Shown here one piece after another: positions 3,631-54,580 of a stretch of DNA of 64,000 bases. A program made the position numbers and the translations under genes. The number at the start of each line of letters is the position of its first letter. Position 1 is the first letter of the stretch. Source of the stretch: Cenococcum geophilum (lineage: Eukaryota); assembly GCA_050273025.1 (NCBI GenBank), contig CP158635.1, forward strand, positions 21,948,001 through 22,012,000, read 5' to 3'. Below the pieces are notes generated by a model. The model was not told where the DNA came from. It saw nothing but the letters and a program-made list of their open reading frames with translations, and ran no database searches.

Positions 3631-3814
3631 CTGGCAACTCTTCTTTTATGGTTGCCATCTATATACATAGATACCGCTTAACTTGTGTAGCGTTATGGAA
3701 CCACCCTATAATACCTTACGCACGCCTACTAATTAGGCCCAGTTATAAGACCGTACTTTACCGTAATCTGCCACAACCTACCATAATTTGCTATATTCTG
3801 CCATGCCATAAAAT

Positions 3815-8480: not shown

Positions 8481-8618
8481 CGTGATTTGGTAAGTACTAA
8501 TAGCACGAGATTCTCGTATAAGATGGGCTTAATTGCTTACCAAAATATAGGGTATCTCTGTCACTGCAGTGGCTACTACAGTAGTAAAGACGCCTTAAAT
8601 ATTTGATGTAACCGACTA

Positions 8619-9092
8619 CTGAGGCTGTCGATGAGTGGAAGGTAGGCTACCGATATGGTGCGAACGATGTAGTTGTTAATATCGTTTATGGCCTGTTTTT
8701 GCTTCTAGTGTACGCGTAGATCGTCCTTATATTCGGCGTAGAGCTGGTTATAGGTAGTGAGCTGGTTTAGGTCTAGCTTTGCTATCAATATAGCCGTGGG
8801 TAGTATGTCCCTTGGTGTAGGCCGACTTAGTAGTTCTAGCTTTAGAAGATTTAGAAGATCGTCTTTCTTCTTAGATGGGTCGATATACTACTATACCTCG
8901 TTAGTTTTGGCTGTGTCTTAGATAATAAAGAACTATTAAATCTAATCGGATGGCTTGTTAAGGATAAGGTTGATTTTTAATTTGGTAGGGGTCGTCATTT
9001 TTAGAATTTAACAGGTCAGGAAGGGTCTAGGTTAGGGTCCAGCTAGCGTCTTGGCAGAACCTTATTTAGACGTTAATTTAATTCGTCAGTTT
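8619..9092 (-). pseudogene. Fragment of Copia gag N-terminus and 5' UTR carried inside the Helitron
   Basis: Colinear similarity to 60258-60718 (Copia-D gag start). No LTR or TSD around it. Confidence 0.85.
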
Positions 9093-9615
9093 GGATCACC
9101 AAAATCCAAAATTTTGTCACGGGGAGCGCGATTAATGACCCCTACTGACAGCTCTAACTACGTCTAATTTTTAATTTATAAATCGGCAGATCTATAGGTA
9201 ATAGTTATTGCAAGCAGCTCCAGGTGCGGTATATATAAAATCTTAACTATAGGGTAGAGAAGTCGTGGCTGCTAATATGCGGTCCCAAGTAGCATGTATT
9301 CTCGGAGGTCACGTGACTCCTTATATAAGCGACATTTCCGCCCTTTAAAAAAAAACTTAAAAAATTCTAAAAATCGATCAACGCTACAGACAGCAGCAAT
9401 ATTGATCCGGCAAGACTGCCAATTCTCCCTATATACCATTATATGTATATCTAACAGCTCTAGAAGCGGTAAGAAGGTAGGACGGATAGGGGGGTTAAAA
9501 TTTAGAAAATTGGATTTCGCGGTTAAGCTATTCAAAAATTAGGAAACTAAGACGAATGCCGCATTCTCCGCTTACCTCCGAGCCAGTACATGATTTCCTA
9601 TTTAGGAAAAGTCGT

Positions 9616-17170: not shown

Positions 17171-17331
17171 TGTTAGTCACATAGGGTGACTTACCAATAA
17201 CGACTACTTAAGTAGGTTACAGTGATGTTGGTTAATATGCTTGTAGGAATAAGGAAGGACGAGGAGCCTAAGACTCCTCGCTACGCTAGTGCCGCGGCGA
17301 CACGTGACGACCGCTTGCCTTATTCCCGACA
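17171..17331 (-). repeat. 5' LTR of GalEa-like Copia copy 1
   Basis: Direct repeat of 3470-3630, followed by TSD GGTAC. Confidence 0.95.
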
Positions 17332-20300: not shown

Positions 20301-20458
20301 AAGGATAAAAACGCCCTAGAAATTTCTTAGTTATATAAGGTTTTAAGATATATAGGAACTTTAACTGGCGGTTAAAGTTATCTAATTAGTTAGATTCTCT
20401 TACTAAGACTTTTAGTGATAAAGCCTAAGGGCAGGCTTTTTTAGAGGGGGGGGGGTAA

Positions 20459-20662
20459 TGTTACGGCACTGGTAGAACTTGGTAAAACTTTGCGGTTATA
20501 TAACTAGAGGACCGCATAAAAGAACCCTTCTTTAACTAGCGCTGCTCTCCTTCTCCTTTCCTTTCTCTAGCTTTAGATTCTTGTTTATAGACAATCTAAT
20601 CGTATAGGCTTGTATACGTCCTTCTTACTGTGCTTATATCTCGATTAACTAAGTCGCTAACA
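20459..20662 (+). repeat. 3' LTR of Gypsy-A (204 bp)
   Basis: Follows the PPT; tgtta...taaca ends. Partner LTR is outside the window, so the right edge is unconfirmed. Confidence 0.75.
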
Positions 20663-30095: not shown

Positions 30096-33000
30096 ACTGG
30101 GGCCAGGTGTATGGGTCCGTTGCTGGGTGGGTCGTGGCTTCGACTCCTGACGGTCACGCACTTCGCTCTAGTACAGTCAAACACGTCTACAGGGGTTAGG
30201 CGAAGAGGCGTCGGCTTGTGTCCGATTAGGATTGGTGTAAGCTTTGCAGTGCGAAGAATTGAATGAACGACTTGATTGTGAATGTAGCTCTAAAGTATCT
30301 ATATATACACGAACAAAGGTAGGTCACTAGTACCCCTTAATCTTATCCTCAATATACCCGTAATTGACATTTTAGGCTAATTAAAGCCGGCTGTAACCAT
30401 TGCGGTCCACAGTACGTGATATAGCAGTGTTTGTGACGTAGTACTAGTAGTCGGTTACACACCCCCCCAGATTTAACGGTGTAGTTAAAGCTGTAGAAAA
30501 CAAAAATAAATGTAGAGATTATACCAAAATAGGAAATTTAGATACAATTTGGGAGTAGTAAAAGGATGTGGTGACCGTGACGGATATTGTGAATAGAATT
30601 AATTGATCTGATGTCGAATATCTACCAAATTCAATTGCTTTATCCAAGCCTCATGCTTTTAACGGGGTAGGACCTTAGTAAGGCCGTTGGCAGGCATCTT
30701 ATCTGTTAGGACCCACCGGACGTTAATCTTTTTGTCTTGGACTTCCTGTCTAAGCTAGTGCTGATGTACGTTAATATGTCAAAGCTTGGTGTCCAGTTTT
30801 AGTGTATCTTGTCTTAGCAGGCGGATAGTTTATATATTGTCGCATAGTAGGGTAAATTCGCGCTCTATATTAAAGCTGATTGCCTTAAAGAATTGTTGCC
30901 ACTAGATGATCTTAATAGTAGTAGTAGACAGGGAGAGAAGCTCTACTTTAATAGTTAAGCGAGTTACTAATCGTTGTAGGGTTACTTTCTAATTAATTAG
31001 TCCTTTGAATAGAATAAAGAGGTATCCTTAAGAGCTTTGTCTAGTCTCCTTATAGTCCACAAATACTATATTAGATACTCCGTAAAAGGTAACGTCTTTT
31101 CCTTTAGGGTTTCTAAAGTAGATATAGGCTCCAAATACTTCGCTAGAGTATTTAATAGCTATAGATTTTGTTCTAAGACAGTAGGTAATAGCTTAGTTTG
31201 CCGCGTTAAGGTATCTTTAATTTAGATTAGTAAGAAATTCGGCTAGCTTAGAATACGTCTTAGTAATATTAGGTCTTCTAAATACGGCGAGGTGTATAAG
31301 AGACCCTACTCGTTGCTAGTAGGCTAGAGTCCTTTAAGGGTTCGTTTGCTAGTCGGACGGAATCAGTTCTTTAGCAGGAAGTGGTGACTTAGGAAATCTG
31401 CCTAGTTAAATATTGAATTAATTGGCTATCTTTTCTGTTAAATTGAGGTTATGTAGCTAAAAACTCTGTATATTGCTTATTTTCTATATAGGTGGTTGAA
31501 GAGATTTTAAGGAACTTTAACCGCCGGTTAAAGTTATCTAATTGGTTAGATTCCTGCCAAGAGCTTTCTCCCATAAGTCTTATTACGTGATATCGTTGCG
31601 GGCTTGTTTTCCAACACCCTCCCTTAAGCTTAGTTAACGATATCGCTATATACACTGTATATAGGGGTATAAGATTGCTTAATAAGGGTTGCTAAAGCTC
31701 CTTTAAGGTAGAAAAGGTGTCTAATAAGGAGTTACGCCCTCCCTAGCGTCTGGAGACAGCGCCTACTCTATGGGGCGTCTCTTGGGGTTTTAGTAGCACC
31801 TCCCTATAAGTGTTCTATATTGCCCATAGAGCTCTAAAGGCCCTATAGCCTTACCCTATATCTCTCCTAAAGTATATCCATTCTTCCTATTAGTATAAGC
31901 CCTCCCTAATGTTATGGCCATTAGATTCGGGTGGTAGGTTTAGGTAGTAGGTTTGGGTGGTAAGTTTAGGTAGTAGGTTAAGTTCTGTCGCTTATATTAA
32001 GGCCTTAAGGCGTTATTTAGCGCACTTTCTAAGAATCTACTGGTTGTATACTGATTTCCTATTAAGGTCTAGTGTAGTTAATTAAGTTTCTGTACTATCC
32101 GAAGGTATTTAAGGAAGGTGTAGAATTAAGGACCTGTAAGAGGCTTAGTAAGGCCGTCAGCCGCCATATTAATTAAAGTGACGTATATAAGGTCAATCCT
32201 ACTACTATTTATCTTATCTCTTATGTAGTGAAACTAGATATTAATATGCTTCGTTTAATTATATTAAACTAGATTTTTAGCCAACGCTTTTACAGCTTAG
32301 TTATTGGTTTTAATTAGGATCCTAATAAACTATTTGCTATCGTTTAGTACGCCTAGTTTAGTAAGTAAAAGTTAAAGCCACGTAGCCTCTTTTACTACAG
32401 CCGTTAGAGCTATATACTCTAATTAGCATATTAATAGCGAAACGGTGGCTTATAGCTTTAATTTCTATAAAATTAGTCCTTTGTTTAATATAAATATAAA
32501 GCCTAATATAGAGCGTCTTGTGGTTTTATCTTGTCCCTAATCGGCATTACTAAAGCTAATTAGTGTAAGGTCTAGGTTCTTATTACCTCTATAAGTAATT
32601 CCTCTATTAAGCGAGCCGGCTAGGTATTAAAGGATAAGCCTTACGGCCGTTATATAGGTAGAGGTAGGATTATAAGTAAAACGGCTTACCGTTAATACCG
32701 CAAAGGCGATATCTAGCCTTGTTTCTATTATAGGAAACATAACTAAACTAACTATACTCTGGTATCTTCTAACGTTATCCTTACTAGTAGTTTCTTAATT
32801 GGCTATAAGCTTAATTAAGTGCTTTATAGGTACTGGTAAGGTATTAGCTTTTCGCAATCTAAAGCGTTTAAAAGCTTTAATAAGGTAGGCTCGCTATAAA
32901 AATATAATCTTCTTCTTCGTTTAATCTCTTATAACTATTATACCTAAGTAAAAGCTTATTAGCCTAAGATCTATTATTTAGAAGGCTGCTTTAAGCTCTA

Positions 33001-33394
33001 CTTTTGCCCAATTAACTACCGCTATGTCTTTATAGATAATTTTAGTATCGTTAACGTAGGTAGAAATAATTAAACCTTTTTATCCTTTACTAGTGGCGAA
33101 TATACTATAATCCGCGTATAGATAGCAAAGTCTAAGCTTTTCTAGTAGAGACTTTAAAAGCGTCTCGTACCAGATTTAAAGTGACTATTTTAGTCCATAG
33201 AGGGCCTTCTTAAGGTGGTAGACTTTGCCAGCTTCTTTATAGCCTTTTAGTATAACAACATAGAGTTCTTAGTTAATCGGTCTATAGAGAAAGGCGGTTT
33301 TAACGTCTATCTGTTTAATTTTAAGATTATAGTAGGTAGTAATCGCGAATAGAGCTCTAAAAGCCATAGGTTTTACTACCGTAGTAAAGGTCTA

Positions 33395-35854
33395 ACGTAG
33401 CTTATGGGTTTTTGACGGTTGGGGGGTTTTTGACGGTTTTTCTTACCGCTTGCCTATTTAAGCTTAGCAACTTATACTGCCGCTTTAAGAATCAAAATAT
33501 CAAAACATTTAATTCCTCAATGCTTGATCTATATTTAAGAAATTTACCATTAACGCCACTATGCCCCACTGGACTCGCGAACCTAATGCAGATTAGAGAA
33601 TTAAGTTAGCAATTACTGGCTTTAAAAATGGCCTCTATAAAAGCCGGGAAGATGCTATAAAGTCTTACGGCATTAACCCAAATATATTACGCAGGTGACT
33701 TAACGGCAAATATAAATCTTATAAAGTCGCGCATACTTACCAGTAGCGACTACTACCCCCTACAGAATCTGCGATCGTACGACAGTATATATACCTTACA
33801 AATACTGGCTTTCCTGCTTAAATTTAAACGGTCCAAGTTATTATAACTAAGATTCTTAAAAAACAAGTAAGAAAGCTTCCTTTTTATTAACCACTACCAC
33901 CACTAGGCAAAGCATAGATAACTACCTTTCTTACTCACTAGAGTAAGCTTCGCGTTTGCTACGCTTAATCACTTAATTAAGAATATGCAATTGCTGGTAA
34001 TAATATTACCGCAATTAAGGCCTTCTTTAACGACTATAATACCGTAATTCAAAACCATAGAATTCTGCTTAAGAATTAATATAATATAGATAAGACTGGC
34101 TATACTATAGGGCTTACTCTAAGTGCAAAAGTAGTAGTTCTAAGAGGTAGAAAATAAGCTTTTAAAACGGTAGACGGCTCGCGCAAGTAGGTAAGTTAAG
34201 TTAACTACATAGGAATAGGCGGTAAAACGATTCCACCTTATATTATTTTTAAGGGCAAGCAATATACAGATTAGCTATAGTAAATAGCTAAGGAAGCTAT
34301 ACCCAGCTATACTATTAGAATAACTAAGAATGGCTAGAGTTTATAGAAATAAGGCCTTAGTTAGCTAGAACACTTTAAGCGATATACTTAACAAACTAAA
34401 TAGTAGCAGGCCTTAAATAAAGAGGACGATAATAATTTTAATTTAAACGGCTACTACCTACTTATAATAGACGGTTATATAAGCCACATTAACCTTAAAT
34501 TTGTTCAGTTCTATAAGGACTATAGGATTATACTAATCTGCCTTCCTCCGTATATAACTCACCTACTATAACCTCTTAATTTAGTAATATTCTTACTACT
34601 TAAGCGGGCCTACTCGTAGAAAGTAGATAAGTATATTACTTTGGGTATTACGGGCCTTAACAGGGAGTAGTTTCTTAGGATTATTAGCGAAATTTGGTTA
34701 GAGATCTATACTACTAATTATATTAATAGCGCCTTTAAAGCTACAGGCCTCTACCTATACAATCTAGAATGTGCCCTTAGCCGCTATAGAAAAAGCGATC
34801 CTATTTAAAGCCTTACACCTACAGACAAATCAGTATTACTACTATCCTCTTCCTTATATCCACAAACTCTAATAAGCGCTAATAACCGCGCCTAATATCT
34901 AAGGACGATTACTAACCCTAAAACGTCACCGGAGGTAGTTAAAAGCTATATTTAAAAGCTTATTAAGCGGCTATAATTACATAAAGATTAAAAGGTGTTG
35001 CTTAAGTAGGAAAATAAAGACCTTTACTACAGCGCTATAGAGAGGAAGAAAAGGAAGAAGGATAAAAAGACAGTACTATTAACAGCAGCGGTACTTACTA
35101 CTAATGCTATAAAGGCGATTGTCGCTGTTAGAGAGGCTATAGAGGAAGCTAAAAGGAATACTAGGGAACAAAGGAAGCGATCTAAAATTAAGTGGGAGGA
35201 GGTAGTAATACTCTATAAGGAACAGGTTAAGGCACAGAAGGAGGCTTAGGCTGCCGCATTGGAGGCTAAAAGGAAGGTAGAGCAACACTAGCGGCAGTTT
35301 TAAGCTGCGCTATTAGCGTTAAAGAAGGCATAGAAAGCTTTAGAGACTGCATCTAGGATAGCAATAAAGAAGAAGACAGCTAAGGCACGAGAGGAATTTA
35401 GGAAGGCAGAGGATTAAGCTGCGTTAGCTAAAGCGCTTGCAACGGCTGCGCAATTAACAGCGAAGGCATCTACTACTACATTTAAGGCAGCAACGGCTCA
35501 CTTAAAGGCTTTAATAGCAGCTACAAAAAAGGTAGATAAAGAGGTTAATATATAGGTAGAGGTAGAGAACGACGAGCAGAGCAATTCGAGTGATAGTAAG
35601 GTATTAGATAAGGACGTTGGCATAGATATAGGCAACGTCGTGCAATTAATCGAGTAGAGCTTCTAATACAAACACCATAAAATGTCGCAATAGAGCCTTA
35701 ATTATATAAAACTAAAGCTTCATTTAATATCGTGGATGGTGCTGCGTGATGCCTTTTATTAAGAAAATGCCTGCAATTAAGCATTTTAAGGCACTAGTTT
35801 TGATGTTCAAAACCGTCAAAAACCCCCCAACCGTCAAAAACCCATAAGCTACGT
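33395..35854 (+). mobile_element. pogo/Fot1-type (Tc1-mariner) DNA transposon, 2460 bp
   Basis: Perfect 46 bp TIRs acgtagcttatgggtttttgacggttggggggtttttgacggtttt with TA TSD at 33393-33394 and 35855-35856. Confidence 0.95.
33561..35730 (+). pseudogene. pogo/Fot1 DDE_1 transposase, RIP-inactivated; end approximate
   Basis: After reversing RIP: NMDETG (~34085), LI.DGH.SH (~34465), LPPH.THLLQPLD (~34545). HTH-like N-terminus and A/K/E-rich tail. Confidence 0.85.
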
Positions 35855-37696
35855 TAGTCGTAGTCAACACCATACTGCTATAGATTTCCCTTAATAATCT
35901 ATCTTGCTTTATAGCGGAGGACCTCGCCATTATATCCCCTTTTAACTTTAAATACCTATTTACCAGCAAGAGGCTTATAAGGAGGCTTAAGGGAGGTAAA
36001 GTTAATAAGTTCCTACGTCTGGTTCTTAACTAGAGATCCTATTTCCTCTATTATTGCTTTTATCTATTCTTTGCTATTTAGGCCATTAATTACTTAGTCG
36101 TAAGTATGAGGCTTATCTTTATTAATTAAGGTAGTAGATATATATGTTTTAAGATCGGGTAAGCAAGTATATTAAATATAGCCCGCTAGTAGAGCTATAG
36201 GATTAACCGCGTTGCGGTCGTTTAAGTAAAGATTTTAAGGTATAGATTATAAGGGAAAGGTAAATAGAAGGGCTATTAGTTTGTCGCCTACTTTATTATC
36301 CTAGTTACTTAGTAGCTTATTAATATTATCGGCCTATTAGTTAAGGCTTTAGTCTATACCTATAAGGCTTATAAGGAAGGCAGTAGGGTTACTTAATAGG
36401 TTAATTCTTAACGTCTAGCGGCCTAATTAAGTAATAGTGGTAGTAAGGTTTTTAGGCAGAGACTTAAGCCCACGGGGTAAGCTGTCGCGGCCTTCCTTCT
36501 AATTAATTCTTTATTGTCTTTTTCTTAATAGAGGCTTTAGCTAAGGAGTAGTAGTGTCTTTATCTTCCCTCCCTTGCTTATTAGATAAGTTAATAAGTTC
36601 TTCTATAAATATAGTAGTAGTCTTTAAACTAATGCCACCTTTATAGATCTTAACGTCTTTAAGGCGCTTAATTTTCTGTTTATCTAGAAGCCAAACGTAA
36701 TAGATTATCTTGCTATTATAGCTAATTAAAACGCCCTTTTTTACTTGTAGAGCGAACCTAGCTAATTTTAGGCGATCTTCTTTAGCTATAAGGGAGTAGA
36801 TAGTAGATCCTAGAGCTCACAGGTGGTATACTAAGGGAGGTTTACCCTTAAGTTTTTTATAAGGTAATATACCACTAAAAGCTCTTATAGGGCGTCTATT
36901 TTTAATATATATAGCTATAAGGAGTACGTTAGGCCACAAAAAGTCTAGTATATTACCGGCGAAAATTATTAAGCGAGTAATTTTAGTAGAGGTTCGCTGT
37001 AAGCGCTCCGCTACTCTATTCTCTTCCTAAGCGTATAAAGCGGCAGGTTTAAATTCTATACCTAGATCGTCTATCTAGGTCGTTGCTTTCTTGCTACAAA
37101 GCTCTACTCTATAGTTAGTACAAATTCTAGCGATTTTAAGGTTAAATTTAGTGCGGATCTAGTTATAGTACCTCTATAAAGTACTGAGCTACTTATCCTT
37201 GATATAGACAGTATAAACTATAGTAAACCTCATATAGTTGTCGGTAAAAGACATGTAGTATCTTTCGCCTTTAAAGCTAATGGGGGTAATATATCCTACT
37301 AGATCCGTATAGATGAATTAAAACAGCTATATAGCTCGTTCCTAAGGTATTTTATTATACTTCTTTTTAGCTTTAGATTAAGCGTAGGGCTTATAGTATT
37401 TATTGCTAATGTTATTAAACTTAATACCGAGTTTATTTAGGTAGTGTTTAAGGTCATTATAGTTAAGGTAGCTAAATTAGTAATGCTAAATGGGTAGACT
37501 TTTGTTGTCTTTAATTATATAAAGGACTGATTTTAACGGGTAGTTATACTATTAAATTAGGTAGAGTCGTTGAACTTTAGGCGCGTATCCTATTACCTTG
37601 CTATTGTATTTAAGTTCGTAAGTCTTATTATTAAAGAAGACGCCTATTTCCTTAAGTCGGCCTCTAGATAGAAGGTTTACTAGTAAATATAGTACA

Positions 37697-40600
37697 TATC
37701 ACGGCTTGAACAAATGCCTCTGAACCGAAGCTTAAACGAATGCTGTATTACCAAGATACTAAGCTAAAGAGAAGGAAAAGGGGTCGCCAGGACCAATGTA
37801 AACAAATATATAGGGTAAGCCGCCAAGGCGCTAGCTTTAGGCGGGCCAATCGCAGGTCGGCAGAATATAGCAGAATTTGGCAGGTAACGTGCGATAGCGC
37901 CATTACATCACCCCCCTCTTTAAAAGAAAGCCTGCCCTTAGGCTTAGTTAGAAAAAATAGGGTAGCACTAGGCTTATAAACGTAGGATTACAAAAATATA
38001 AGATAAGGAGATAAAAGGGGACATAAGTCCATCCTGACTAAGTATAAAGGGCGATTGTGGGCTAAGTGGAAGCACTAGGCCAGAAAGAGTAGCCGCTAAA
38101 AGTCTTGGCACGGATCTAACCAATCAGACAACTTCAACCGGCGGTCGAAGTTCCTGGACATCTGAAATTTTATGGTACTGGCAGAAAACGGCAGAATATA
38201 GCAGAATTTGGCAGACAGCTGTATTAGAGCTTTAGGGCGTTTTTATCCCTATATTCTTCCGGTAACTTATCGTCTTTATTATGCCAGCATTCCATCTATT
38301 TATCTAGGTACTTCGGGGGTCCAGGCGTATTAGGGTATTAGTTATAGAATTCTTTAAGCTTCTAGGGGTAGCCTATAAAGTTCTATATAGGGTACCAGGT
38401 TAGGTCAGGATCGTAGCCCTTCCATTAGACACGGTATTTTAGCGCTCCCCATACTATCTTGCAGGCTAGTATTTTATTAACCTCCTATTCGTTGTCACCG
38501 TTTACTTAAACTAGTAGGGGAGGCTCGTTCTTTTATCCAGGCAATGGGTCGTTTATAGCTTTCCGTAACTTATTTGGCGAGAAGATAGGGTGAACCCTAA
38601 TTAAGTCTAGGAGCTTTATCTTGTACAAGTTGCCTATCTTTTTAAAAACCTTATACGGTCCTACCATCTAGTAGTCTAGCTTACGGCTAGGTCGTTCGGT
38701 CCTCTAATTCCTTATTATAACCTAGACTATATCGCCAGGGGCAAAATCGGGCTCTTGACGGTATTTGTTCGCCTGCTGTTCTATTAACCTCTAAGCTTTT
38801 TCCAAGTTCTCACGGGCTACCGTCTAGGCCTCCTCCAATCGTTTGGCGTACTATTAGGCCTTAGTATAGGATAGCTTCTCTCGTATAGTCTAGGGTTCTT
38901 CTAGCCTTTTCCAGTTAAAGCTTATACGGGGTAAGTATCCTATTTTTAGCTAAATCGGGGCAAACCCTATAGAGTTATGGGGTAGGGTTGCTTGCGCGTA
39001 GTCTATTAAGGGTAGTAGTTCAAACTAGTTGTCCTAAAAATAGTTAATAAAGGGCCTAAGCCTCTAGTCTAGGTACTAATTTACAATCTCTGTCTAACCG
39101 TCTATTTAGGGGTAATAAGCTGTAGAAAGCTTTAGCTTAATACCTAGGATCCAGGTAAACTTATTCCAAAAGGCTAATATAAACTGTGGCCTATAATTGA
39201 ATATAATAGTATCTAATAGTCCGTAGATTTAGTAGACGTAATAGATATATAGCCGGGCTGCCTCTTTGGCATTAATGTTCTTATAACATGGAATTAAAAA
39301 CAGGCGTTTACTAAAGCGGTTAACTATAACTATAACTATATCATATCTATTACGGTCCCTAGGTAGTTTGTGAAAGTCTATAGAGATATGCTGCTAAGGG
39401 CGCTCTAGTATTAGGAGTGGCTTAAGTAGTCCTAGGGTCTTATCCCGTGGGATTATAGCTCTCTAGCAGTCTTCGCAGTTCCGTATATATCGATTAATAT
39501 CCGCAACCATTCTCGGCCAGTAGTAGCGGCAGTTAATAATTTTATAGGTCTTATTCTTACTAGGGTATACCATAGAGACTTAGTAATAAGCTTCGCGGAT
39601 TAGTTCGGTCCATAGATTATCGACATTAGGGACTATAAGCCGCTCCTAGTATAGAAGCAATCCTTCCTCCGTCTTAAAATTGGGGTCTCCTTTTACGGCT
39701 TATTCGCGGAGGGCCCTTAAGGCGTTAGCCGTACAATTTACAGTTAGAAGGCGGTCAATTAGCCCTATTAGCTTATCTAAGGACTCCTCCATTAGTGCTA
39801 GCTCGTTTTGCTAAGAGTCTAGCTCCTTAAGGATCCGCGGGTCGAGCTATTCTAGATAGAGGAGGGCGCGCGTCCGATATTAGGTCTTTAGCTCATCCTA
39901 GGGTCCTACATCTTATTCTCTTTAGGTTAGGGCATTAGCCTTAGAGTTTTACTTACCAGAACGATATATAATCGTAAAGAAGAATTAGGAGAGTATTTCA
40001 GCCTACTAGGCTTATCGCCCTATAAGCTACTTTATAGTTATAAAGTACTCTAGGGCTTTATAATCTATATATATCTTAATCCGGGAGTTCGTACCTTTAA
40101 GCTCTACGCGCTATTGGGAGAGTAATTAAATAATAGCTAGCATTTCTTTATTATATACTTCATAGTTATACTTAGCCGGGTTTATTATCTTTAAGAAGAA
40201 AGCCATAGGGTACTATTCACCGTCTAGATATAACTGTAATAAGATTCCCGCTACAACCCCATTAGAGGCGTCTGTTTCTAGCATTAATTTAAGGTCCGGG
40301 TTATAGTAACAAAGGATTAGGGAAGAGATAAGCCGATCCTTTACCTCTTTAAAGGCCTCTATATAGCTATCGTTAAAGACAAAAGGCGTATTCTTCCTGG
40401 TTAGTCATACAAGAGGTTTTGCTATAATTCCATAGTTACGGATAAACCGGCGGTAGAAATTATAAAAACCAAGGAAGGACTGGATTCCTTTTACTATATA
40501 AGGGGGCTTCTAGTTACGGATTGCCTCTACCTTCTTAGGGTTAACCTTAATTCCTTCCGTAGTTACAATAAACCCAAGGTATTTTATACATTTTACCCTA

Positions 40601-43600
40601 AACTTATATTTCTTAATATCAACTTATAAGCCCACATTCCGTAGTCTCTCTAGAACCTTCCTAATATAAACTTAATACTTAAGTTTATTATCCAAGTATA
40701 TAAGAATGCCGTCTAGGTATGCCGTGTAGAATTTGTTAAGGTAATTAAAAAGAACGTCATTTATATACCTTTAGTACGTAGCCAGTCCGTTTATTAGTCT
40801 AAAAGGAAGAACTTTATATTTATAGGAACTATAGCAGGTACGGAACGTTGTTAAATCTTTAGATACAGGGTCTATCCTAATTCGGTAAAAAGCTTGGCGG
40901 ATATTAAGTTTGGTAAAGATCTTTACCTGGCTTAGATGTATAAGGGTCTCGTTAATTAAAGGAATAAGATACCGGTCCTTTTAAGTAATAGCGTTTAGCT
41001 TCTAATAGTTAATATAAAAACGAAGGCCTCTATTAGGCTTTTTTACAAATAGGATAGGGGAAGTAAAAGGGGCTTAACTTAACTCGATAAACCCTTTATC
41101 CAGGTTGTTAATTAAGTACTACTTTATTACTTTTAGCTTATCCATCAATTAATAATAGAGGGGGCTATAGCCTAGCGAGTTATAGGCCTCTAATTAAATC
41201 TTGTAATCGTATATCTGGTAGGGGGGTAACTTATCTAAGGCCGCCTTTAAGAATGCATCCTTATAGCCTATATAAATAGTAAGAAGGAGGCGTTCGACTA
41301 GTTCCTTATCAGTTTCCTTATCTAGCCTTTCCTCTCTATTATTAATAATTCAGTTAATCTTATATAGGCTCGTTATAAAGACCTTATTATCCTTCTAGTA
41401 TATATTGAAGTAAAACGCTACAGCGCTAATTGCGGCGATATTTATGGTAGGGGGGTTAACTAACAATAGGGGCGTATGTGACTTTAGGGACTTCTAGGGT
41501 ACTGGCGTCATCATTACTCCTTTTAGCTCCTATTGCATCTTTTAAAGGTTATCCCTCATATCCTATTAATACGTTCTTTTCTATAACGGTTAGATCTATA
41601 CGATTTAGACGTTATCTACGTTATTATCTGTCCCGCTTTTATACGTAGAGTCCTTTTTAAACGTAGCGCTTCAAGAGAGTATCTTTATTGGTATAGAGTT
41701 CTTTCCAGCTTTATGGCGGGCGTCCTCTTAGGCAAAGGCTAGGTTACGGGCCTAGATATCCTACTAGTAGGTAGGGTTAGCCCTTACGGCTAGTGTCTTA
41801 CAGTTAGTTCAGATCTCCCTAATAAAGGAGGGCAACCTCAGTCTATCCTCCAGCTAGACAAACCGTCTTTTTCACACGTTTAACTAAATATTAAAATAGG
41901 ACATCCATTTTTATCCGAGGATTATATCGTAGGACCCTAGGTCTAGGATACAAAAGGGGATGCCGTATTAGCGTCGTCTGTTAAGAGCGATATACAACTT
42001 TAAGACGTAGGTAACAGGCCAACCGGCTTGGCTATTGTAGCCCTTTACCTAAACAGGCTTCTCTAGTTAGATAGCTTCTATATTTAGAAACTTGGCAACA
42101 TTATTTATATAGGCAGTATTTATAAAGGCGAAGCTATTTACTCTAGTGTTAATAAGGGCGGTTGTATTAACTCTATATCTATTTTAAAATACTGTATATA
42201 GAACCGTAAAATACTTTCCACCTATTAACTAACTAAGATTAATCTCTTCGAGATCGATAGGGTACCCTAGGGGGGAGTCTTTCCCTAGGGTTCTTCTTTT
42301 CCTAACTTATTGGACGTTTCTCCTTCCTCCATCTCCTTAATATCGCCTATATCCTTTAGCTCCGGGCAGGACAAGACAAAGTGACCTTACTTATCGCAGT
42401 TAAAGTACATAGCCAAGGCAGGGTCAATTGGAGTATTACGGCGAATACTAGTTAATGGCGTGGTATATAGCTGGTTAGGCGAGGCTCGCTAGTGCGTAGT
42501 TGTAACCGCCTTTGGTATAAGAGCAGTCGTAACTTATCTTCCTGCTTTAGCTCTTATAGGTATAGCTGGCGAGTTCTAATTATTATAGAGTCGCTTCTAC
42601 TAATTAGGGCGGGCGTCGATCCGCTTTAGTTCTAAGTCTAATAATAGGTAACGAGCTGCGAGTCTTTTATAGGTTGGCAGGTTATTTAAGGTTATAGCGA
42701 TCTTTTCTTATAGCCGGATTATTAGCTTATTATACAGGTCTAATCAGTAGTTCTTAAGGGGAACCTAGCCTTCTCCTGTAAGGTATAGAAATTAAGTCTG
42801 GAATTTGGCAAAGGGTTAGTTCGGTTTTATTATTAGGTAATTATAGTTATAATAGGCATCCCGTACTTTATTTAGGTTAACGTAAATAGCCGCTAGGTGC
42901 CGTATTATCTTATTAACAGATATAAATTAGACAGGGGAGTCGTCCTTAAACTTGGCTTAAAGGTGCCATTAGGCGTCCCTAATAGTTTAACTAAAGAGGT
43001 AGAGCATTTTGGCTTCTTTAGAAAGGAAATAGTTATAGTTAACACAGAGCTTTCCTTATACTTAAATCCTCCAATTCTTAAAGGTAGGGTCTATCCCGTT
43101 AGATAGTGGTGGGGGGTTAGGGAGCTTAATAGACTTTAATTACTTCGTTATTATATCCATACTCCCTAATATATTACATTTAGTAGAGTAAATAGGTCGA
43201 CTAGGGCTTTAAGAAGGGGAAGCTGGGCTATTTCGTAGGGCCGTAAGGCTTTCTAGGATCTCTTGTAGGGTCTTTTATATATTTCTTACTTTAAGACGAT
43301 TGGCTTCCTAGCTGGCTGCGAGGGCACGAATCTGCTCGCGTATGTCTACGACATCATTATTGTCTTCAATTTCTGATCCTAATTAGATCTCAGGTTCCTC
43401 TCGGGTAGAGGCAGCTCTCTTAGATAAGCTTGCTTTAGGTGCCATCATTAGCTTCCTAAGGTTTGTCGGTATTGTACGCTTTAGTTTCAATTCCGGGGGT
43501 ATAGGTCTAGTCCTATCTAGCTTATAAGGTGGGATATTATCCAGGCCTTCCCAGGTAATATAGGGTTGTTTTGGTGTCTGAGTATAGCGCGTTAATGCGT

Positions 43601-43886
43601 CGTTGCAGACGAAGTTTCTTTAGGGTGGGATATTATTGAGGCCTTCCTAGGCAAGGTAGGGAGAGCTTAGTATAATGTTACGGCTTAAACAAATGCCTCT
43701 GAACCGAAGCTTAAACGAATGCTGTATTACCAAGATACTAAGCTAAAGAGAAGAAAAAGGGGTCGCTAGGACCGATGTAAACAAATATGTAGGGTAAGCC
43801 GCTAAGGCGCTAGCTTTAGGCGGGCCAATCGCAGGTCGGCAGAATATGGTAGAATTTGGCAGGTAACGTGCGATAGCGCCGTTATA
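37697..43886 (-). mobile_element. Full-length Ty3/Gypsy chromovirus 'Gypsy-C' (6190 bp), RIP-degraded, related to Gypsy-A
   Basis: 211 bp LTRs at 37697-37907 and 43676-43886. TSD gtaca/gtacg. PPT agaggggggtga on minus. gag with CCHC knuckle (~42390), protease, RT (AYLDGILIY ~40710), RNase H, integrase, chromodomain (~38400). PBS atactaagct is complementary to agcttagtat in its own LTR. Confidence 0.95.
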
Positions 43887-46800
43887 GTACGTAAAAAACA
43901 TTATATATAGTAAGCGTGCTTCTACAGCTTTTATTAGGTAGTGCGGTTTATATAAAAATAGACCCTTTACCTACTAAACGAGCCCTATAGGGACCAACTA
44001 TCCCTAATAAGGTGTCGTTATTAACGTAGTTAAAAAAAAGTTCGCGATCTTTATAGTAGTAGACGGTAGTGGCGGTATTAAGGATAAAGTTATACCTACT
44101 TAGTTAAGCTTATACTACCGCTACTGTAAGCTCTTATTATAGATTTGCGTTAAGCTTAGCTTAACTAAAATATTTATTAAGCTAGATAGACGCTTAAGTC
44201 CTAGGCCTCTTCCTTGCGCGGATTTTATTGCTAATTTCCTTTAGAGTGTTATCTGGCTTCCTCTCCTAACAGTCTTCTTTATAGTACGTAGTTCTGTTAA
44301 ATCTTACGTAGTTAAGGTGCTTATATATCCCAACTAGTGCTATTTTTCTCTTTATAGACCCTCTGTTATTTAATTATACTACTAGTATAAATACTTCTTA
44401 ATTAAGTTTGCTGTTAAAAATAATAAGTTCTTTACCTAGAGCTCGCGGGTTAGTATTTTCCTATATTTAATTTATTTAATTTATTGTTTTAAACTAAGCG
44501 TATTTAGTAGAGTTAACCCTATATAGAAGGGCCGCTTAGGTAAGAAGTTTGTAGTTAATAGGTTAGTTAATTTTAATAAGATAATTAAGGTTTAATGTAA
44601 TATAGGAGATAAACTCCTTTATGTTCTTAAAGTCTTATATACGTTTAGTAAAGAGGGTAGCTATAATATTGGTAACAGCTACCGGATTAAGATCCTTAAA
44701 ACGCTCTTTTAAGGCCTTCTATTTTTTAAGCGCCTATCTAGCATTTAATATAAACGGCTTATAGATATTATTAACGCTCTAGTTAATAAAACCGGCTATA
44801 TAGGCTAGCTGTTTCTCATATTTCTCCCGTTCCTTTACTAGCTTAGTTAATTTAATTTTTAGCTATTTACTAGTAAAGCCTAAGTCCGCCTATTTCTCCT
44901 TAATCGACTTAAGTATAGGAAGAGGCTGTGGTAAATCGTTAAGGACCTACTCGATGTTCTTAGATTGGAGGTGGTTTTATATATTAATACTAAACATTGG
45001 CCAGTCTTCCCGTTTAACGAGCTTTTAAATAGAGGCTTGGGCGGTACGTTTATTGCTTATATTAGCGGGGCTTTAATTATAGGTAGTTTGTAGTAGGCAG
45101 TCTATAGGCCTTATTAGAAACAACGTTGTTAAATTGGTTTCCTTTATAGGGAGTATAGGTTTTTTAACTTAATATATTCCTTAGCTGGTATAGGCAGTTC
45201 CAATAAGCTTCTTTTAATCCCCTACTAATGTGGATATTATAAAGCTTTATTCTCAAAACTCTATTATTCTATAATAATAATAGTAAGGTTATCTACCGAA
45301 TAAGAGGTCCTCCTAAGCCTCTAGTGCCGCTATTTGGTTACGGACTGTATTAGGCTCGTCCTTAGTAGGATCCTCTTATATATTTAGCGTAGAGTCCGTT
45401 AGCAGCTACGTAGCTGCTTGTTATAGGTTTTTAGCGTTATAAGTTGGTAAACGTTTACCGACTTCTGTTAACGCCCGTATGGTAATATTACGACAGCAAT
45501 TATTATAACAATAATAAAGCAATTAGATTTAGCTTATTAGGCGCGAACCCAGGCTTATAACCTATTGAATTAAGGTTATATAGCTAAAAACTCTATATAT
45601 TGCTTATTTTCTATATAGGTAGTTAAAGAGATTTTAAGGAACTTTAACCGCTAGTTAAAGTTATCTAATTAGTCAGATTCCTGCCAAGAGCTTTCTCCCA
45701 CAATTCTTATCACGTGATATTGTTGCGGGCTTATTTTCCAACATTTTTAATATAGGAATCTTGGTAAAGCCAGAGCTTTTAACTTAGTCGATCTCGTTTG
45801 ATTTAAATTCCTAGGAACTACTATAGGTCTCCTAGTGCACGGATTTTATATCTTTGTAGAAGCTTAGCTTTAAATTCTTTAAGTTTTAAAAGGTCCTTTT
45901 TGGCAAATAGAACGGCAATGTTATCTATATAGAAGAAGATAATAAGTTATCCGTTAGTGTATAGGCAGTTAGTACCTAGGATAGGCTTTAATCCAAATTC
46001 GGCTAGTGTACTAGTGAGCTCTTTATACTATAGTAGTGGTGATATTTTTAATCTATATAGCGCCATAAGTAGCTTTAGGATATATCTATCTTGACCAAAT
46101 CCTTCTAGGTAGTAGCAGTAGACTAGTTTACTAAGCTTAGCGTTTATAAATGCGTTTATAGCGTTATACTATCGAATTTCCAAATTAAATGCGGCTGTTA
46201 TAGCTATAAGAGTATAGAATATTCGAGCAGCTAGGGTTGCTGCATAGGTCTCTTCTTTGGTAATCTATAAGTCTCCGCGGACGTAGTCTAGCTTTAAGCT
46301 TTTATAGGTAGCCGTTACTATTAAGCTTATATTTAAAGACCTATTTTAGTAAAAGGATCTGCTTATTACTTACTTCTTCTTTTAGTACAGTCTTAAATGT
46401 CCCTCGGCGTTTTAGGTCATTATATTCTTTTTCTATAGCCTTTTAAAAGATAGTAGTTAAAGGATACTTTCTTAGTTCTTTAAGGTTCTTTAGTTTAGGG
46501 GGAAGATTGTCCTAATATAGAGATAAGGATAAGGATTTAGTTCGGCTGATATTCTTTACTAGTCCTATAGCAAATCTAGCGTAGTAACCAAATAGGGTAG
46601 ATAGATTGGCTAGGGCTGTTGTATACGCTTAACGTCGAAATCGTTTAAATCCTTCTGGTAGGATAAGGTTGACAAAAGGTTTGGCTAAGACTTTATTAGC
46701 TTATAAAGCTGTATTTAACGGTTCTAATAAACTGCTTGGCTAGGTAGGACTTGTTTTAATTATATCTAGGATATTGTCTTAAAGTCCTCTTAGTGTAGTA

Positions 46801-48532: not shown

Positions 48533-51500
48533 TATTGGACTCACAAGGGGATATCACGTAGCTACGGTTCGTAGATAGTATAATGGTTGTTCTTCTTTTT
48601 CTTCTTGAAGAAAGGGGTAAGGAACTTAAGGTTCCTCACCACGTTAGTGCCGCGGCGGCACATGATGGCAACTTGCCGCACGTAACGGCAACTTGCTACA
48701 CATAACGGCAATATGCCTCATATAGTGGCCATTTGCCTTTATTCCCAACACTAGCAACTCTTCTTTTATAGTTGCCATCTATATATATATACCGCTTAAC
48801 TAGCGGAACAAAAATCAATCCTCCTTACTTACTATTACCATTATAATATAAGTCTCGCTGTCCCAAAATTTGCCTCTTAACACGTGGTGCTTTCTTACTT
48901 ATAAGTTATAGGTAAGTATCTTATTAGTAGGGCCGCCAAGGCGCTAGCGGTAAGTAAGCCAATAGCAATTTTCCATCCCGGGGATGGAAAATCCTGATTA
49001 GCTAGTTTAAGTCAGGGTCTGCAGAATCTAACTAATTAGACAACTTTAACCGCCGGTTAAAGTTCCTGGACATCTTAAGACCTTACGTAACTAAGAAATT
49101 TCTAGGGACTCCCTTTTAACCCAACCTTTAACTCGTATATATAGAGTATTTATATTAATAAACGTCTCTAGTGCCTTGTTTAGGTTCGCCTTTATTATTA
49201 TATCTACTAGGTTATCTTAGCCATTAATTTATTAAATCTTAAAGAGTTTTTAACGCTTGTAGGATTGCTAAAGTGCCATAATATTGATTATAAGGCGCTT
49301 TTCCTTTGTGGTACCGAGCTTAACTAAACACTTATAGAGGGAAAATAAATCAGTGCATATAATTATAGGGATAATGGGAAGTTCGAGTCAATCTATAATT
49401 ATCTTTAGGGTAGTTCCAATTACAATTACCATATTAACTCCGCTAACTATTCTATATATCTCTAATGCTAAAACACTTTAGGTAATACGCTTGCTCTTAG
49501 TTAAGCTCTAATAGATAAGATTGCCATAGATTATAAAGTCATTCTCTCTAGTAAATTCGTTCGCGATAATAATCTTATATTCTAACTAGGAGCTAAAATC
49601 TTTATTATTTACGAACGATCTATTAATAAATATAAAGAGCTTAGCGGTAGGAAGATTAATAAGTACATAGAGTAGTCCCTAATTAAGATAGTTCATTTAC
49701 TAGAAAAGACGTTTATTTAGGGCAAGAACGTCATCCTAAGTTAGTTCCTAGTGTTAGGTGGCAACAGAGAGATTAAATAAAGCCTTAGGTTAATAGATAG
49801 AAGCAATATAAGCTTCGTAAGCGCGTTGCTCCATATATCCTTACTTTAGGGAATTAATATTAATAACGTTAATCTTCTTACCTTAACCCTTCTAGCGTAA
49901 AGCAATGTAATCCTTATTTAGGGAGAGGATGCATCCATTAAAGAGTAATAGTATTATTAAGTCAAGCTTTTCCTTTAGCTTTGCTATAAGATTTACCTTT
50001 ACTAGCTTATCCTCTTTAAGAGCTAAGAATTAGTCGTCTCCTAAGATAATTGTATTATTAGTTTGTATACTAATGATTCTAAATAGGGTTCCCGTAGTTA
50101 TAATAAGGAAGCAGGGATTAAATATAGAAGTAGTTATCAAAAGCTTCTCTTTATAGTGCTTGCTGTAAGTAGCCCACCAGTAAGTTCCTACCTCTACAAT
50201 TCTATATAATAGCTTAAGCATAACCATAATCGTGTCTTTAGGATACTAGTGGTGAATTTACTCCGGAAGGTATGCCAATATCAAGCGCTAAAGGTACGTC
50301 TCTAATTAGGTGTAGGCTTAAGTAATATCTTACAAATAAACTGCTATTTTATTCTTTATTAAGGAGGGAGCTAATATAACAATGACTCGCTAACTAGCTC
50401 GTTAAATCGTGGGAGATTATATAAGAATTATCTCTTTACTATTATCGTTATAACCTTAAATGACAAGCCTTGATTTCTCGAATGGGGCGTTAGTAGCTTT
50501 GCCCTTAATCTCGTTGACTATTCTTAACTTAAAAATGCAAACTCTATTAAACTTAGTAGGGTTATATTTCTTAAATTTAAAGACTCCTCTTGTAATAAGA
50601 CCGTTGATCTCCTACTTATCGGATGCTTAGAAAGGAGCTCCTAGGGTTATAATACGACCTTCCTTTCGGAGCTATTTTGTGAGCTTAAAGTTAGCCTTTT
50701 CTTTAGCTGTTATAAAGGCCATTAATAACTTGACTCTACTCTCTATAGCAGTAACAAATTGCTCTTTAAAATCAATAAGATATTAGCAATTTCGTGATCC
50801 CTTCGGGCGACCTCTACCGCGTCATAGTTACGGCACGTCTACTATAATTATATTAGGATCATAGTCGCCTTCTAGGGCACGTTGATCGTGATTTTCCTTT
50901 AGGGCATCTTCTAGGGTATCTTCTAGGGTATCCTGTAAAGGCTTAGAACTATCATCTTTATAGTAGGGCCTAATAACGGTTAAACGGAATTAAGTAGGTC
51001 TATAGGGCATCTAAAGAGTGCAAGTTTGACTATTAATTATAATGAGTTTATGTGGGCCTAACTATCCTCCCTTTTTACGCTATACTCGTACTTCAGATTA
51101 AAGTGGCAGATTGAGCGTAGTTAAAGTATTTAGGCCATTTTTTATTCCTAATACGTTATTAACCTGGTGTGTAGCGTATAGACGTTATACCTCCTTTGTT
51201 ACTTTATAAATAGCCTCAGCTCGTTATATAATAGAGGGAGATAGTAAAGAATTATTAGTTATTTAAGGGTAGGCGCTAAAGACTAGTAATATAAGTACGA
51301 GTCTATCCGGGCCAGCGGAATTGTTAATAGCTTTAACAGCTATTTGTAAGGTAAGTTCTTTACTAGCGTCCTTTAGTTCTAAAGAGATAATCTTATATGC
51401 GCGGCGTAATAGCGTATAATATCGCTCTACTTTTTTAATACTATTATATGCCTTAATAGGGACTTCCTTAACCTTAATTGCTATTGCCTTTATTTATTGT

Positions 51501-54500: not shown

Positions 54501-54580
54501 ACTTGCCGCACGTAACGGCAACTTGCCACACGTGACGGCAATATGCCTCATATGGTGACCATTTGCCTTTATTCCCAACA
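48533..54580 (-). mobile_element. Full-length GalEa-like Ty1/Copia 'Copia-F' (6048 bp), RIP-degraded
   Basis: 218 bp LTRs at 48533-48750 and 54363-54580. Perfect TSD CTTTT. CTAATCAGT immediately after the 5' LTR. RT QTDDT-type motif (~50060). pol colinear with copy 1. Confidence 0.95.

Follow-up and report, generated by a model that had tools for sequence, protein, structure and literature searches.

The window, by which we mean the whole 64-kb stretch of Cenococcum geophilum DNA that was analysed, contains four LTR retrotransposons of the Gypsy and Copia superfamilies that share a short non-coding sequence, cassette M1 (Table 1). Gypsy-C encodes RVT_1, RNase H, integrase and chromo domains on the minus strand, has a 3' LTR beginning TGATG with the PPT AAAGAGGGGGG before it, and lies, together with a DDE_1 transposon, nested within Copia-E, in which RVT_2 and SH3 domains were found on the minus strand. 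A Pfam search of Copia-F in six frames, read through with X, returned 0 families, and its minus-strand assignment was made from the frame-4 translation and a CHSeq1-like motif, CTAATCAGT (54355-54363), directly after the 5' LTR. The pol region of Gypsy-A shares 62% protein identity with that of Gypsy-C over 18777-20273, and is followed by a pol stop at 20328-20330 and a PPT-like G run at ~20440.

Table 1. Retrotransposons and non-coding cassettes in the 64-kb window.
Feature	Position	Strand	Description
Gypsy-A, 3' part	17722..20470	+	pol region, then 3' UTR, PPT, LTR start
M1 core, Gypsy-A 3' UTR	20345..20397	-	antisense to + strand element
Copia-E	31435..45743	-	LTRs 31435-31616 and 45562-45743 (182 nt, 91%)
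M1 core, Copia-E 3' LTR	31501..31553	-	sense, inside LTR
Gypsy-C, chromovirus	37701..43884	-	LTRs 37701-37905 and 43680-43884 (205 nt, 95.6% identical)
M1 core, Gypsy-C 3' UTR	38112..38164	+	antisense to element; -10..+42 from pattern start 38122
M1 core, Copia-E 5' LTR	45628..45680	-	sense, inside LTR
Copia-F, GalEa-type Copia	48535..54582	-	LTRs 48535-48752 and 54365-54582 (218 nt, 96.8%)
M2, Copia-F 3' UTR	48956..49001		25-nt palindrome ATTTTCCATCCC-N-GGGATGGAAAAT, inverted CCAAT...ATTGG flanks
M1 core, Copia-F 3' UTR	49024..49076	+	antisense; within 85-nt stretch 49023-49107

In order to locate M1 a 36-nt RIP-aware pattern was used, comprising the CCAAT side, the palindrome and TCCT, and this matched the window five times with 0 mismatches (20354-20389(-), 31510-31545(-), 38120-38155(+), 45637-45672(-) and 49032-49067(+)), the chance expectation over 100 dinucleotide shuffles being 0.00. 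The 23-nt palindrome searched by itself returned the same five sites, no sixth copy was found in the window at ≤3 mismatches, and each element or LTR holds one copy. The initial annotation, which had placed a unit of about 50 bp at five named locations, is borne out at all of them; its figure of four elements also stands, its total of six copies being replaced by the five found here. It had likewise read the unit as lying in sense in the Copia-E LTRs and antisense in the 3' UTRs of Gypsy-C, Gypsy-A and Copia-F, with a TATA-like string beside the Copia-E unit, and we find the same contexts and the string TATATAG 23 nt downstream of M1. Read in sense the Copia-E LTR thus runs CCAAT, palindrome, 23 nt, TATATAG; the latter occupies 31484-31491 in the 3' LTR, where an E-box remnant lies on the other side of M1 at 31584-31589, and the 5' LTR retains an intact CACGTG at 45711-45716. 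These two are the only copies in the window that sit in a true LTR. The Gypsy-C copy is antisense and has the end of pol (~38.3 kb) on one side and the start of the PPT/LTR (~37.91 kb) on the other, being set ~190 nt inwards of that boundary, and its core consists of a mini inverted repeat around CCAAT, the palindrome (38130-38152) and then TCCTGGACATCT. Similarity between the 3' UTR copies and the Copia-E LTR is confined to ~66 nt, and contig loose ends at 31502, 45629 and 49078 in two DNA runs fall at the edge of the M1 core.

M1 is a discrete non-coding cassette of about 53-65 bp whose conserved core of 53 nt spans positions -10 to +42 relative to the pattern start. Read from the left, it often has GTCTTGGCA first, followed by the mini inverted repeat TCTGA-CCAA-TCAGA, which contains the CCAAT box, the palindrome AACTTCGACCG-S-CGGTCGAAGTT, and CCTKGACATCT. 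The arms of the palindrome are perfect over 11 nt and enclose one central base (AACTTCRACCG-S-CGGTYGAAGTT, with CCG-S-CGG at its centre), such that the 3-nt loop of the initial annotation, GGC or GCC, reduces to a single position at which the G/C difference is real. Both the un-RIPped L101 and the de-RIPed class consensuses retain CCAAT intact.

A metagenome scan added at least 125 further loci with 127 instances of M1, giving 132 instances in total, all distinct. The scan was limited to RIP-type variants of the pattern, by which variation at positions 0-33 is censored; outside the pattern (-10..-1 and most of +34..+42) almost only RIP-type transitions were seen, the exception being position +34, which is T, A or G and differs by flank class, and past the core the flanks are class-specific. 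All loci were also searched for copies of M1 bearing changes other than those of RIP; none was real, the yield being 56 AT-rich chance matches. In four flank classes both G and C occur as the central base, whose state is shared by nearest neighbours in 18/22, 16/17, 16/17 and 16/17 cases, and in 10/17 for class L1R1. The central state mostly tracks subfamily structure, and its flips are few events and no constant flip-flop.

The instances span at least nine flank contexts in both orientations. Among their carriers are three Gypsy lineages that have diverged deeply, a fourth lineage, of chromovirus type, and two Copia, of which one is GalEa-type. Identity in pol between lineages R1, R2 and Gypsy-C/A is only 35-43%, and the conservation of the M1 core is therefore far above what descent allows. 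Every class that could be placed lies beside the PPT or within an LTR, the non-coding zone that M1 has entered by lateral copying being the 3' UTR or the 5' part of U3. A PPT-like run occurs 28-264 nt from M1 on its LTR side in 22/22, 17/19, 15/17, 7/17, 5/6, 5/5 and 6/13 instances for the antisense classes and 17/17 for the sense one, and in no class examined was it ever on the other side. M1 is antisense in most carriers (classes R1, R2, R4 and R5, in which ~100 of the 132 instances are internal to the element, a short way upstream of the 3' LTR), and the 3' end of pol was found within 700 nt on the opposite strand in 52/132 instances. It is in sense in the 3' UTR of the R3 chromovirus lineage (17 loci), where Integrase_H2C2, SH3 and Chromo domains on the strand of M1 end ~820 nt upstream and the PPT follows at +183 in 17/17, and also in L101 and L104, 258 nt upstream of an ATG. 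CCAAT in sense upstream of a TATA or start is confined to the Copia-E LTR and perhaps L101/L104, most carriers having M1 inside the element.

M1 was transferred from Gypsy to Copia at least once. Copia-F (49023-49107) and Gypsy-A (20314-20398) are 90.6% identical over 85 nt, a pairwise similarity reaching beyond 50 nt. Metagenome copies of Copia-F hold a patch of Gypsy-A made up of the pol ORF's final 17 nt, the 3' UTR with M1, the PPT and ~8 nt of the LTR start, and it is the inclusion of the Gypsy pol end, PPT and LTR edge that gives the direction of copying; the proposal that the unit had moved laterally between superfamilies is upheld by these copies. The left part of the patch has been lost from the Copia-F of the window. 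M1 is absent from the related Copia copy at 3467-17331 and from one Copia-F-family contig in each of two DNA runs, and membership is thus polymorphic within the Copia-F family.

A CACGTGA E-box is frequent ~50 nt from the pattern start. YACGTR occurs at +40..+90 in 50/128 instances against 3.2% expected, a count that is inflated by shared descent within families and corresponds to only ~4 independent arrangements. Its offset is ~+50 in R1, R4, R5(L6) and R7 and +54-57 in R2, the spacer sequences differing; factor sites would be expected to show this combination of a conserved island and a diverged spacer before it. In Copia-E the E-box is on the opposite side of M1, and a RIP-mutated version (TACGTA) lies near the Copia-F M1 at 49084-49089. 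RIP converts CACGTG to TACGTA or TATATA, with the result that 'TATA boxes' in RIP-mutated copies can be artefacts, and the TATA-like string by M1 in Gypsy-A and Copia-F is such a mutated CACGTG.

From the arrangement of these sequences we tentatively favour the view that M1 is an orientation-independent cis-regulatory cassette spread by recombination. A promoter or enhancer function is plausible given its U3 site upstream of TATA in Copia-E, its CCAAT box and the recurrent CACGTG ~50 nt away. M1 would work at the DNA level as an upstream activating or enhancer block in either orientation, and its likely readers would be the CCAAT-binding complex, a dimeric factor on the CCG-S-CGG dyad and an E-box factor; in Copia-E it would form the core of the U3 promoter, and in the 3' UTR carriers it would be placed 28-264 nt upstream of the 3' LTR. 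Spread would have occurred through inter-element recombination, most likely, we infer, by template switching between co-packaged RNAs, and the identical 53-nt core may then provide homology between unrelated elements, making further exchange of LTR-side sequence possible. Against this reading, M1 in a 3' UTR cannot drive the 5' LTR of a new insertion as a classical upstream activator, and an enhancer role therefore misses the commonest context; moreover, the M1 copies are all young relatives, and conservation of the core may thus partly reflect recency.

M1 might instead be a structured element of RNA or minus-strand cDNA at the 3' end of the genomic RNA, with a part in reverse transcription close to the PPT, in RNA dimerisation or packaging, or else in RNA export or stability, which we consider less likely. 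The un-RIPped core is predicted to fold into a closing stem and two hairpins (dG -23.2 kcal/mol, z -2.78; z -2.90 for the reverse strand), and all placed contexts fall within a few hundred nt of the 3' end of the genomic RNA, at the distances from the PPT given above. The stems are perfect palindromes and therefore form the same hairpins in either orientation, which accords with the occurrence of M1 in both, and the presence of G or C at the centre within four flank classes is expected if the loop flips. Sirevirus LTR palindromes are likewise reported to keep their structure whilst the sequence drifts (PMC4728375). That the core consists of nested inverted repeats, with z of about -2.8 on either strand, was counted against the regulatory reading.

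The second cassette, M2, bears on the same question. Beside the copy in the Copia-F 3' UTR there is another at 59235-59280, and M2 occurs in either orientation. Position 10 of the arm carries a transversion in 9/63 copies, and all nine are symmetric or symmetric with one RIP change (A-T 4, G-C 3, G-T 2), 0 being uncompensated, although these cases represent only ~two events. The central base is free (G18, C16, A15, T14). A dyad kept by compensatory transversions is better fitted by a nucleic-acid hairpin than by a protein site. For M1, however, conservation of the CCAAT side, of the TCCTKGACATCT side and of the E-box equals that of the stems, and these would be complementary between orientations; the distance to the PPT varies nine-fold; and the closing stem (CAAGGA/TCCTTG) is, on our reading of the consensus rows, lost in some classes. 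Rfam 15 gave no gathering-score match in the window and none at E≤1 in L101 and L104, and a tRNA scan found no tRNA-like gene.

We also regard as less likely the possibility that M1 has no function for element or host and is a neutral recombination patch, surviving only in the insertion-tolerant zone of a compact LTR element (3' UTR, 5' U3) and recurring because its hairpins would stall RT and promote template switching. The flank combinations are indeed mosaic: left class L1 pairs with right classes R1, R2, R3, R4, R8 and R9, R1 pairs with L1 and L2, and R2 with L1, L3 and L8. M2 takes either orientation and is a ~119-nt indel abutting the left edge of M1 in one lineage and a portion of a replacement in another, and the polymorphic presence of M1 in the Copia-F family, the loss of the left part of the patch from the window copy and the two orientations of M1 all agree with neutrality. 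However, the same core with the same edges is fixed in at least nine contexts, in place of random donor pieces; the adjoining spacer has diverged by transversions, which the core and E-box have not; and the Copia-E core lies at promoter distance from a TATA box.

It is improbable that the role of M1 in the 3' UTR is that of a dedicated antisense promoter, firing into pol and giving antisense or small RNAs that control copy number. Antisense promoters are known at the 3' ends of other retroelements, which was counted in its favour, as were the orientation of classes R1, R2, R4 and R5, the opposed pol 3' ends noted above and TATA-like strings 60-130 nt downstream in the R2 flank. The initial annotation had suggested that the unit points antisense to drive antisense RNA, and as a general rule this lacks support: the R3 lineage carries M1 in sense with its PPT at a constant distance, no TATA downstream of antisense M1 is consistent across classes, and the TATA-like string of Gypsy-A and Copia-F is a RIP product. 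A raw RNA run gave almost no depth over the Gypsy-C and Copia-F copies, but both are RIP-dead, so this says little.

A very improbable reading is that M1 inserted itself as a tiny mobile element in its own right, whether MITE-like or a solo-LTR fragment: its edges are sharp, it forms a discrete unit and it has inverted repeats inside, but these repeats are internal only, the core edges (GAATCT..., ...GACATCT) not being inverted repeats of each other, no target-site duplication was seen at the Gypsy-A/Copia-F patch or the M2 indel, and the placed copies are all by the PPT or in an LTR, with none in random contexts. The Copia-F patch carries Gypsy coding sequence and PPT, which indicates an origin in an element and not in a free unit. 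An independent MITE had been named beforehand as the finding that would overturn the shared-module proposal, and neither TIR nor TSD was seen. Two related candidates were rejected: a solo LTR or LTR fragment, given that homology to the Copia-E LTR extends over only ~66 nt and that the Gypsy-C copy lies well inside the boundary, and a Helitron end for the 80-nt unit (TC...CTAG), in which 40 nt separate the hairpin from the end and Gypsy coding sequence is present in the patch.

A wider reading, possible though rather doubtful, is that M1 belongs to a pool of PPT-proximal cassettes (M1, M2 and GGCAGAAT-type repeats) that move between Gypsy and Copia, form one host-factor regulon and use the core as homology for LTR swaps. 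Were this so, mobility would operate below the level of the element, in either orientation and between unrelated lineages, and binding of the same host factors would place many families under one control, a transposon 'regulon'. Sharing of non-coding sequence between Gypsy and Copia is unexpected, and M1 offers a concrete, datable crossing with an identifiable donor, and the block is met again in many lineages at a single functional landmark, the PPT/U3 border. If M1 is regulatory, one host signal could trigger bursts of several transposon families in this repeat-rich fungal genome; if it is structural, it may reflect an unrecognised requirement or hotspot in the reverse transcription of fungal LTR elements.

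Literature searches for a CCAAT-plus-palindrome module in fungal LTR elements found analogues only and no report of such a module. Cis elements placed internally or between the last ORF and the 3' LTR include the internal enhancers of Ty1, the C-module antisense promoter of TRE5-A and the retroviral CTE/RTE export elements. Each of these is, to our knowledge, restricted to a single family and one orientation, and we know of no shared cross-family cassette among them.

The closest analogue is the RM box of Sireviruses, which is present in 8-32 copies per element, is conserved by descent in one plant Copia genus, and is proposed by its authors to have a cis-regulatory role and to be swapped by co-packaged transcripts (PMC2829016, PMC4728375). 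M1 resembles RM boxes in its dyad symmetry and CGG/CCG core, in its placement both in the LTR, upstream of TATA, and in the stretch linking pol to the 3' LTR, and in a palindrome maintained through sequence change. RM boxes, in contrast, have no CCAAT partner and are many per element, against one M1 per element, and are found within one genus, whereas the 53-nt block of M1 is near-identical across fungal Gypsy and Copia elements, with a direct Gypsy-to-Copia patch. [quoted passage not shown] Like the CHS, M1 is a non-coding feature, of palindromic or hairpin type, of fungal Copia elements; unlike it, M1 lies on the 3' side close to the PPT, is present in Gypsy as well and differs in sequence, and Copia-F has its separate CHSeq1-like motif, M1 not being at the CHS position. 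Mosaic LTR retrotransposons formed by template switching show segment exchange, and their non-coding regulatory regions can evolve in concert between distinct elements (PMC1950507, PMC5491270); the reported cases known to us involve related families or whole LTRs or domains, not one small cassette recurring across superfamilies.

M1, a non-coding block of ~53 nt made up of a CCAAT box and a 23-nt palindrome, was found at all five places where the initial annotation had put it, and reading each of them gave the identical block. The palindrome consists of 11-nt arms enclosing a single central base, so that the contrast drawn there between GGC and GCC ‘loops’ is a genuine G/C difference, but of one base and not of a 3-nt loop. 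A search of the window with the exact palindrome at 38130-38152, allowing ≤3 mismatches, matched 3 of the 5 M1 sites. A RIP-aware version (C/T and G/A free to vary) matched five sites with 0 mismatches and none in 100 shuffles, and a 36-nt RIP-aware pattern (CCAAT side, palindrome and TCCT) gave exactly five matches with 0.00 expected. No sixth copy appeared at these thresholds, and the count of six proposed previously is lowered to five.

The carriers in the window are the LTR retrotransposons Gypsy-A, Gypsy-C, Copia-E and Copia-F. The minus strand of 37906-43679, translated with stops as X, encodes RVT_1, two RNase H models, Integrase_H2C2, SH3_Tf2-1 and a chromodomain. In the sequence flanking Gypsy-C, RVT_2 and a retroviral SH3 also read on the minus strand, with a DDE_1 transposase on the plus strand. 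From these domain strands and the layout of the LTR pairs, Gypsy-C is nested in Copia-E, with both pointing leftwards. Contigs of DNA runs X1 and X5 omit 6195 nt at 37687-43883, and other copies of Copia-E therefore lack the nested Gypsy-C. The DDE_1 (pogo/Tc1-like) transposon occupies 33394-35860 within Copia-E (~2.47 kb, plus strand); X1 contigs connect 33393/33394 to 35860/35861, so other copies represent the empty site.

Along the sense strand of Gypsy-C the order is pol, antisense M1, ~190 nt, AAAGAGGGGGG and the LTR start TGATG, and in Gypsy-A (plus strand, 62% protein identity to Gypsy-C) antisense M1 lies immediately 3' of the stop codon at 20328-20330. M1 is in sense in the Copia-E LTR with TATATAG 23 nt downstream, confirming its earlier description as upstream of a TATA-like string. 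Copia-F gave no Pfam match; its frame-4 translation reads like Copia RT/RNase H, ending near 49110. According to PMC5445492, the CHSeq1 palindrome replaces the primer-binding site in fungal GalEa Copia elements and defines them. A relative of Copia-F at 3467-17331 (87% identical internally) lacks M1 and has short tandem repeats in its place. At the same place in the LTRs of both there is an odd palindrome of 21-25 nt (48616-48640, 54446-54470 and 17260-17280), and the differences between the two elements are symmetric transitions, consistent with RIP on both arms. Elsewhere in the window, 6997-7044 has a layout like that of M1 (CCAAT, 10 nt, a 21-nt palindrome at 7012-7032 and TATATAA). A GC-rich island (~0.6) between repeats, at 23098-28362 on the minus strand, encodes in four consecutive open frames an NLR-like protein with NACHT_N, an NPHP3_N-type NTPase and an extended series of almost identical ankyrin repeats, these last encoded by 99-nt tandem units at 23120-25516.

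Features of the M1-carrying elements (window positions; values with a plus sign are offsets from the start of the M1 search pattern, and R and L denote right- and left-flank classes)
Feature	Position	Carrier	Remark
LTR pair	37701-37905 / 43680-43884	Gypsy-C	self-comparison
LTR pair	31435-31616 / 45562-45743	Copia-E	self-comparison
LTR pair	48535-48752 / 54365-54582	Copia-F	self-comparison
CTAATCAGT	54355-54363	Copia-F	directly after 5' LTR end (...CCAACA); RIP form of CHSeq1 palindrome
M2 (second cassette)	48956-49001 and 59235-59280		25-nt odd-length palindrome, inverted CCAAT...ATTGG flanks
E-box arrangement	about +50	R4/R5(L6)/R7	
E-box arrangement	+42 or +49	R1	
E-box arrangement	+54-57	R2	
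E-box arrangement	opposite side of M1	Copia-E LTR	

When copies were aligned, Copia-F and Gypsy-A shared, in the same order, ~8 nt from the beginning of the Gypsy-A LTR, the Gypsy polypurine tract (PPT), M1, an E-box remnant and the end of Gypsy-A pol, represented in Copia-F by the final 17 nt of the reading frame with its stop. In this alignment two AAAAG repeats bracket a gap of 25 nt, and a further segment at the left of the patch has been lost from the window copy of Copia-F. The direction of transfer, as read from the aligned copies, is Gypsy to Copia, because the Copia-F patch includes Gypsy coding sequence and the Gypsy PPT. M1 has spread laterally, and the exchange between superfamilies proposed initially is seen directly in this patch.

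M1-carrying families were present at very high summed depth in two DNA runs, in which contig loose ends accumulate at the M1 edge (31502, 45629 and 49078). Each of two DNA runs has one contig in which 49027 connects to 49108 via 11 other letters, which represents a Copia-F copy without M1. A metagenome scan with the RIP-aware pattern gave at least 125 loci (80 with 3-kb flanks, 45 with only ~300 nt), mostly under three sets of record names (five prefixes overall); they offer depth within a lineage rather than breadth across species, and probably come from a single fungus or a small number of related ones. They hold at least 127 instances, making 132 with the window five, none a 99% duplicate of another. 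M1 is a discrete core: among the matches listed, obtained with a scan confined to RIP-type variants of its pattern, the pattern-free positions (-10 to -1 and most of +34 to +42) vary almost only by RIP-type transitions, +34 excepted (T/A/G, class-specific), and outside the core at least nine left-flank and at least ten right-flank classes occur in mosaic combinations.

Placement was judged with window-derived pol queries. Among the matches listed, a pol 3' end lay on the opposite strand within 700 nt in 52/132 instances and on the same strand within 1 kb in 11/132; 23/132 had none, and in 46/132 the flanks were too short to call. The pol genes adjoining R1, R2 and Gypsy-C/A share only 35-43% identity. 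M1 is PPT-proximal: every antisense class listed has a PPT-like run towards the LTR (median distance 28 to 264 nt), and among these matches none was found on the non-LTR side. R3, a chromovirus, has its Integrase_H2C2, SH3 and Chromo domains on the M1 strand, ending ~820 nt upstream of M1; its PPT lies 3' of M1 (PPT-like run at +183 in 17/17 members listed) and its 225-nt LTR ends at +420. M1 therefore occurs in both orientations, and the antisense placement in 3' UTRs noted at the outset is common without being a rule, since the R3 3' UTR holds it in sense.

The true M1 arms, read from the one locus without RIP mutation (L101), are AACTTCGACCG. GC is 0.43 in L101 versus 0.29 in L104; the latter is RIP-mutated, and the L101/L104 sequence, which may belong to an LTR or a 5' leader, was therefore repeated and not a single-copy host promoter. 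Class consensuses, in which C/G was preferred wherever both states were present, derive the ‘TATA-like’ TTATATAAC (Gypsy-A) and TTACGTAAC (Copia-F) from TCACGTGAC. M1 is accompanied by an E-box: a YACGTR hexamer falls at +40 to +90 in 50/128 of the instances listed, which are non-independent, where the background of the loci themselves predicts 3.2%. These form about four arrangements, with transversion differences between them in the core-to-E-box spacer.

We tentatively favour M1 as a DNA-level, orientation-independent regulatory cassette, a reading which we put somewhat below an even chance, because in Copia-E it makes up the U3 core, at promoter distance, has a canonical CCAAT box and is accompanied by the E-box across diverged spacers. 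The weak point of this reading is that M1 is internal in most carriers: it precedes the 3' LTR, a position from which an upstream activator brings the 5' LTR no evident benefit. A structural role for M1, in the 3' terminus of the genomic RNA or in the corresponding cDNA, would account better for position and orientation, but leaves the conserved asymmetric flanks and the E-box unexplained, and we consider it rather unlikely. The un-mutated core folds into a closing stem enclosing two hairpins, a small one with a CCAA loop and the 23-nt palindrome (dG -23.2, z -2.78), and the opposite strand gives the mirror fold (z -2.90). Among the matches listed, the M1 centre is G or C within four classes, mostly following subfamilies.

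M2 is laid out like M1, with a CCAAT box and then an odd-length palindrome, and is also found at L001, L009, L011 and other metagenome loci, near M1 in four flank classes and in either orientation. M2 keeps its dyad symmetry: in 63 copies, gathered without symmetry bias at arm position 10, the pairs there were C-G 48, A-T 4, G-C 3, G-T 2, T-G 3 and C-A 3, the transversions being compensatory with none uncompensated, and the central base being any of the four. M2 is a ~119-nt indel abutting the M1 left edge in R1 and part of a replacement in R2, with no TIR or TSD seen at either. In raw RNA run X21, ~36 reads match only the M2 core (48957-48999) and extend both ways into unlike, non-RIP-looking sequence, and M2 is therefore part of a transcript expressed elsewhere in that organism. 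Short repeats of GGCAGAAT type, which may be a third shared module, occur at 38175-38215 (Gypsy-C 3' UTR), as an identical 26-mer in both Gypsy-C LTRs (37858-37883 and 43837-43862) and, in the Copia copy 3467-17331, as a tandem array within the 3' UTR (3789-3985); comparable GGCAAT/GGCAGAAC repeats come after M1 in other lineages.

M1 could also be a neutral patch in the sole insertion-tolerant zone, recurring as hairpins provoke template switching; this accounts for mosaicism and polymorphism but not for the sharp common edges and diverged spacer, and has about the same modest chance as the structural role. A dedicated antisense promoter fits poorly and is improbable, and a MITE, which also fits poorly, is very improbable.

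Our literature search found no paper on a CCAAT-plus-palindrome block common to fungal Gypsy and Copia elements. At the junction with the 5' LTR, fungal GalEa elements possess a conserved hairpin site, an ‘extended’ version of which is common to families of one species (PMC5445492). Of the systems described, the closest to M1 is found in plant Copia elements, namely the RM box and palindrome region of Sireviruses. The RM boxes are dyad motifs built on a CGG-CCG core, found in the LTR upstream of the TATA and in the linker before the 3' LTR (PMC2829016, section 9), and according to PMC4728375 (section 16) the palindrome is retained while its sequence changes, and swapping via co-packaged transcripts is suggested. 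The Sirevirus RM boxes differ in being multi-copy and inherited within one genus.
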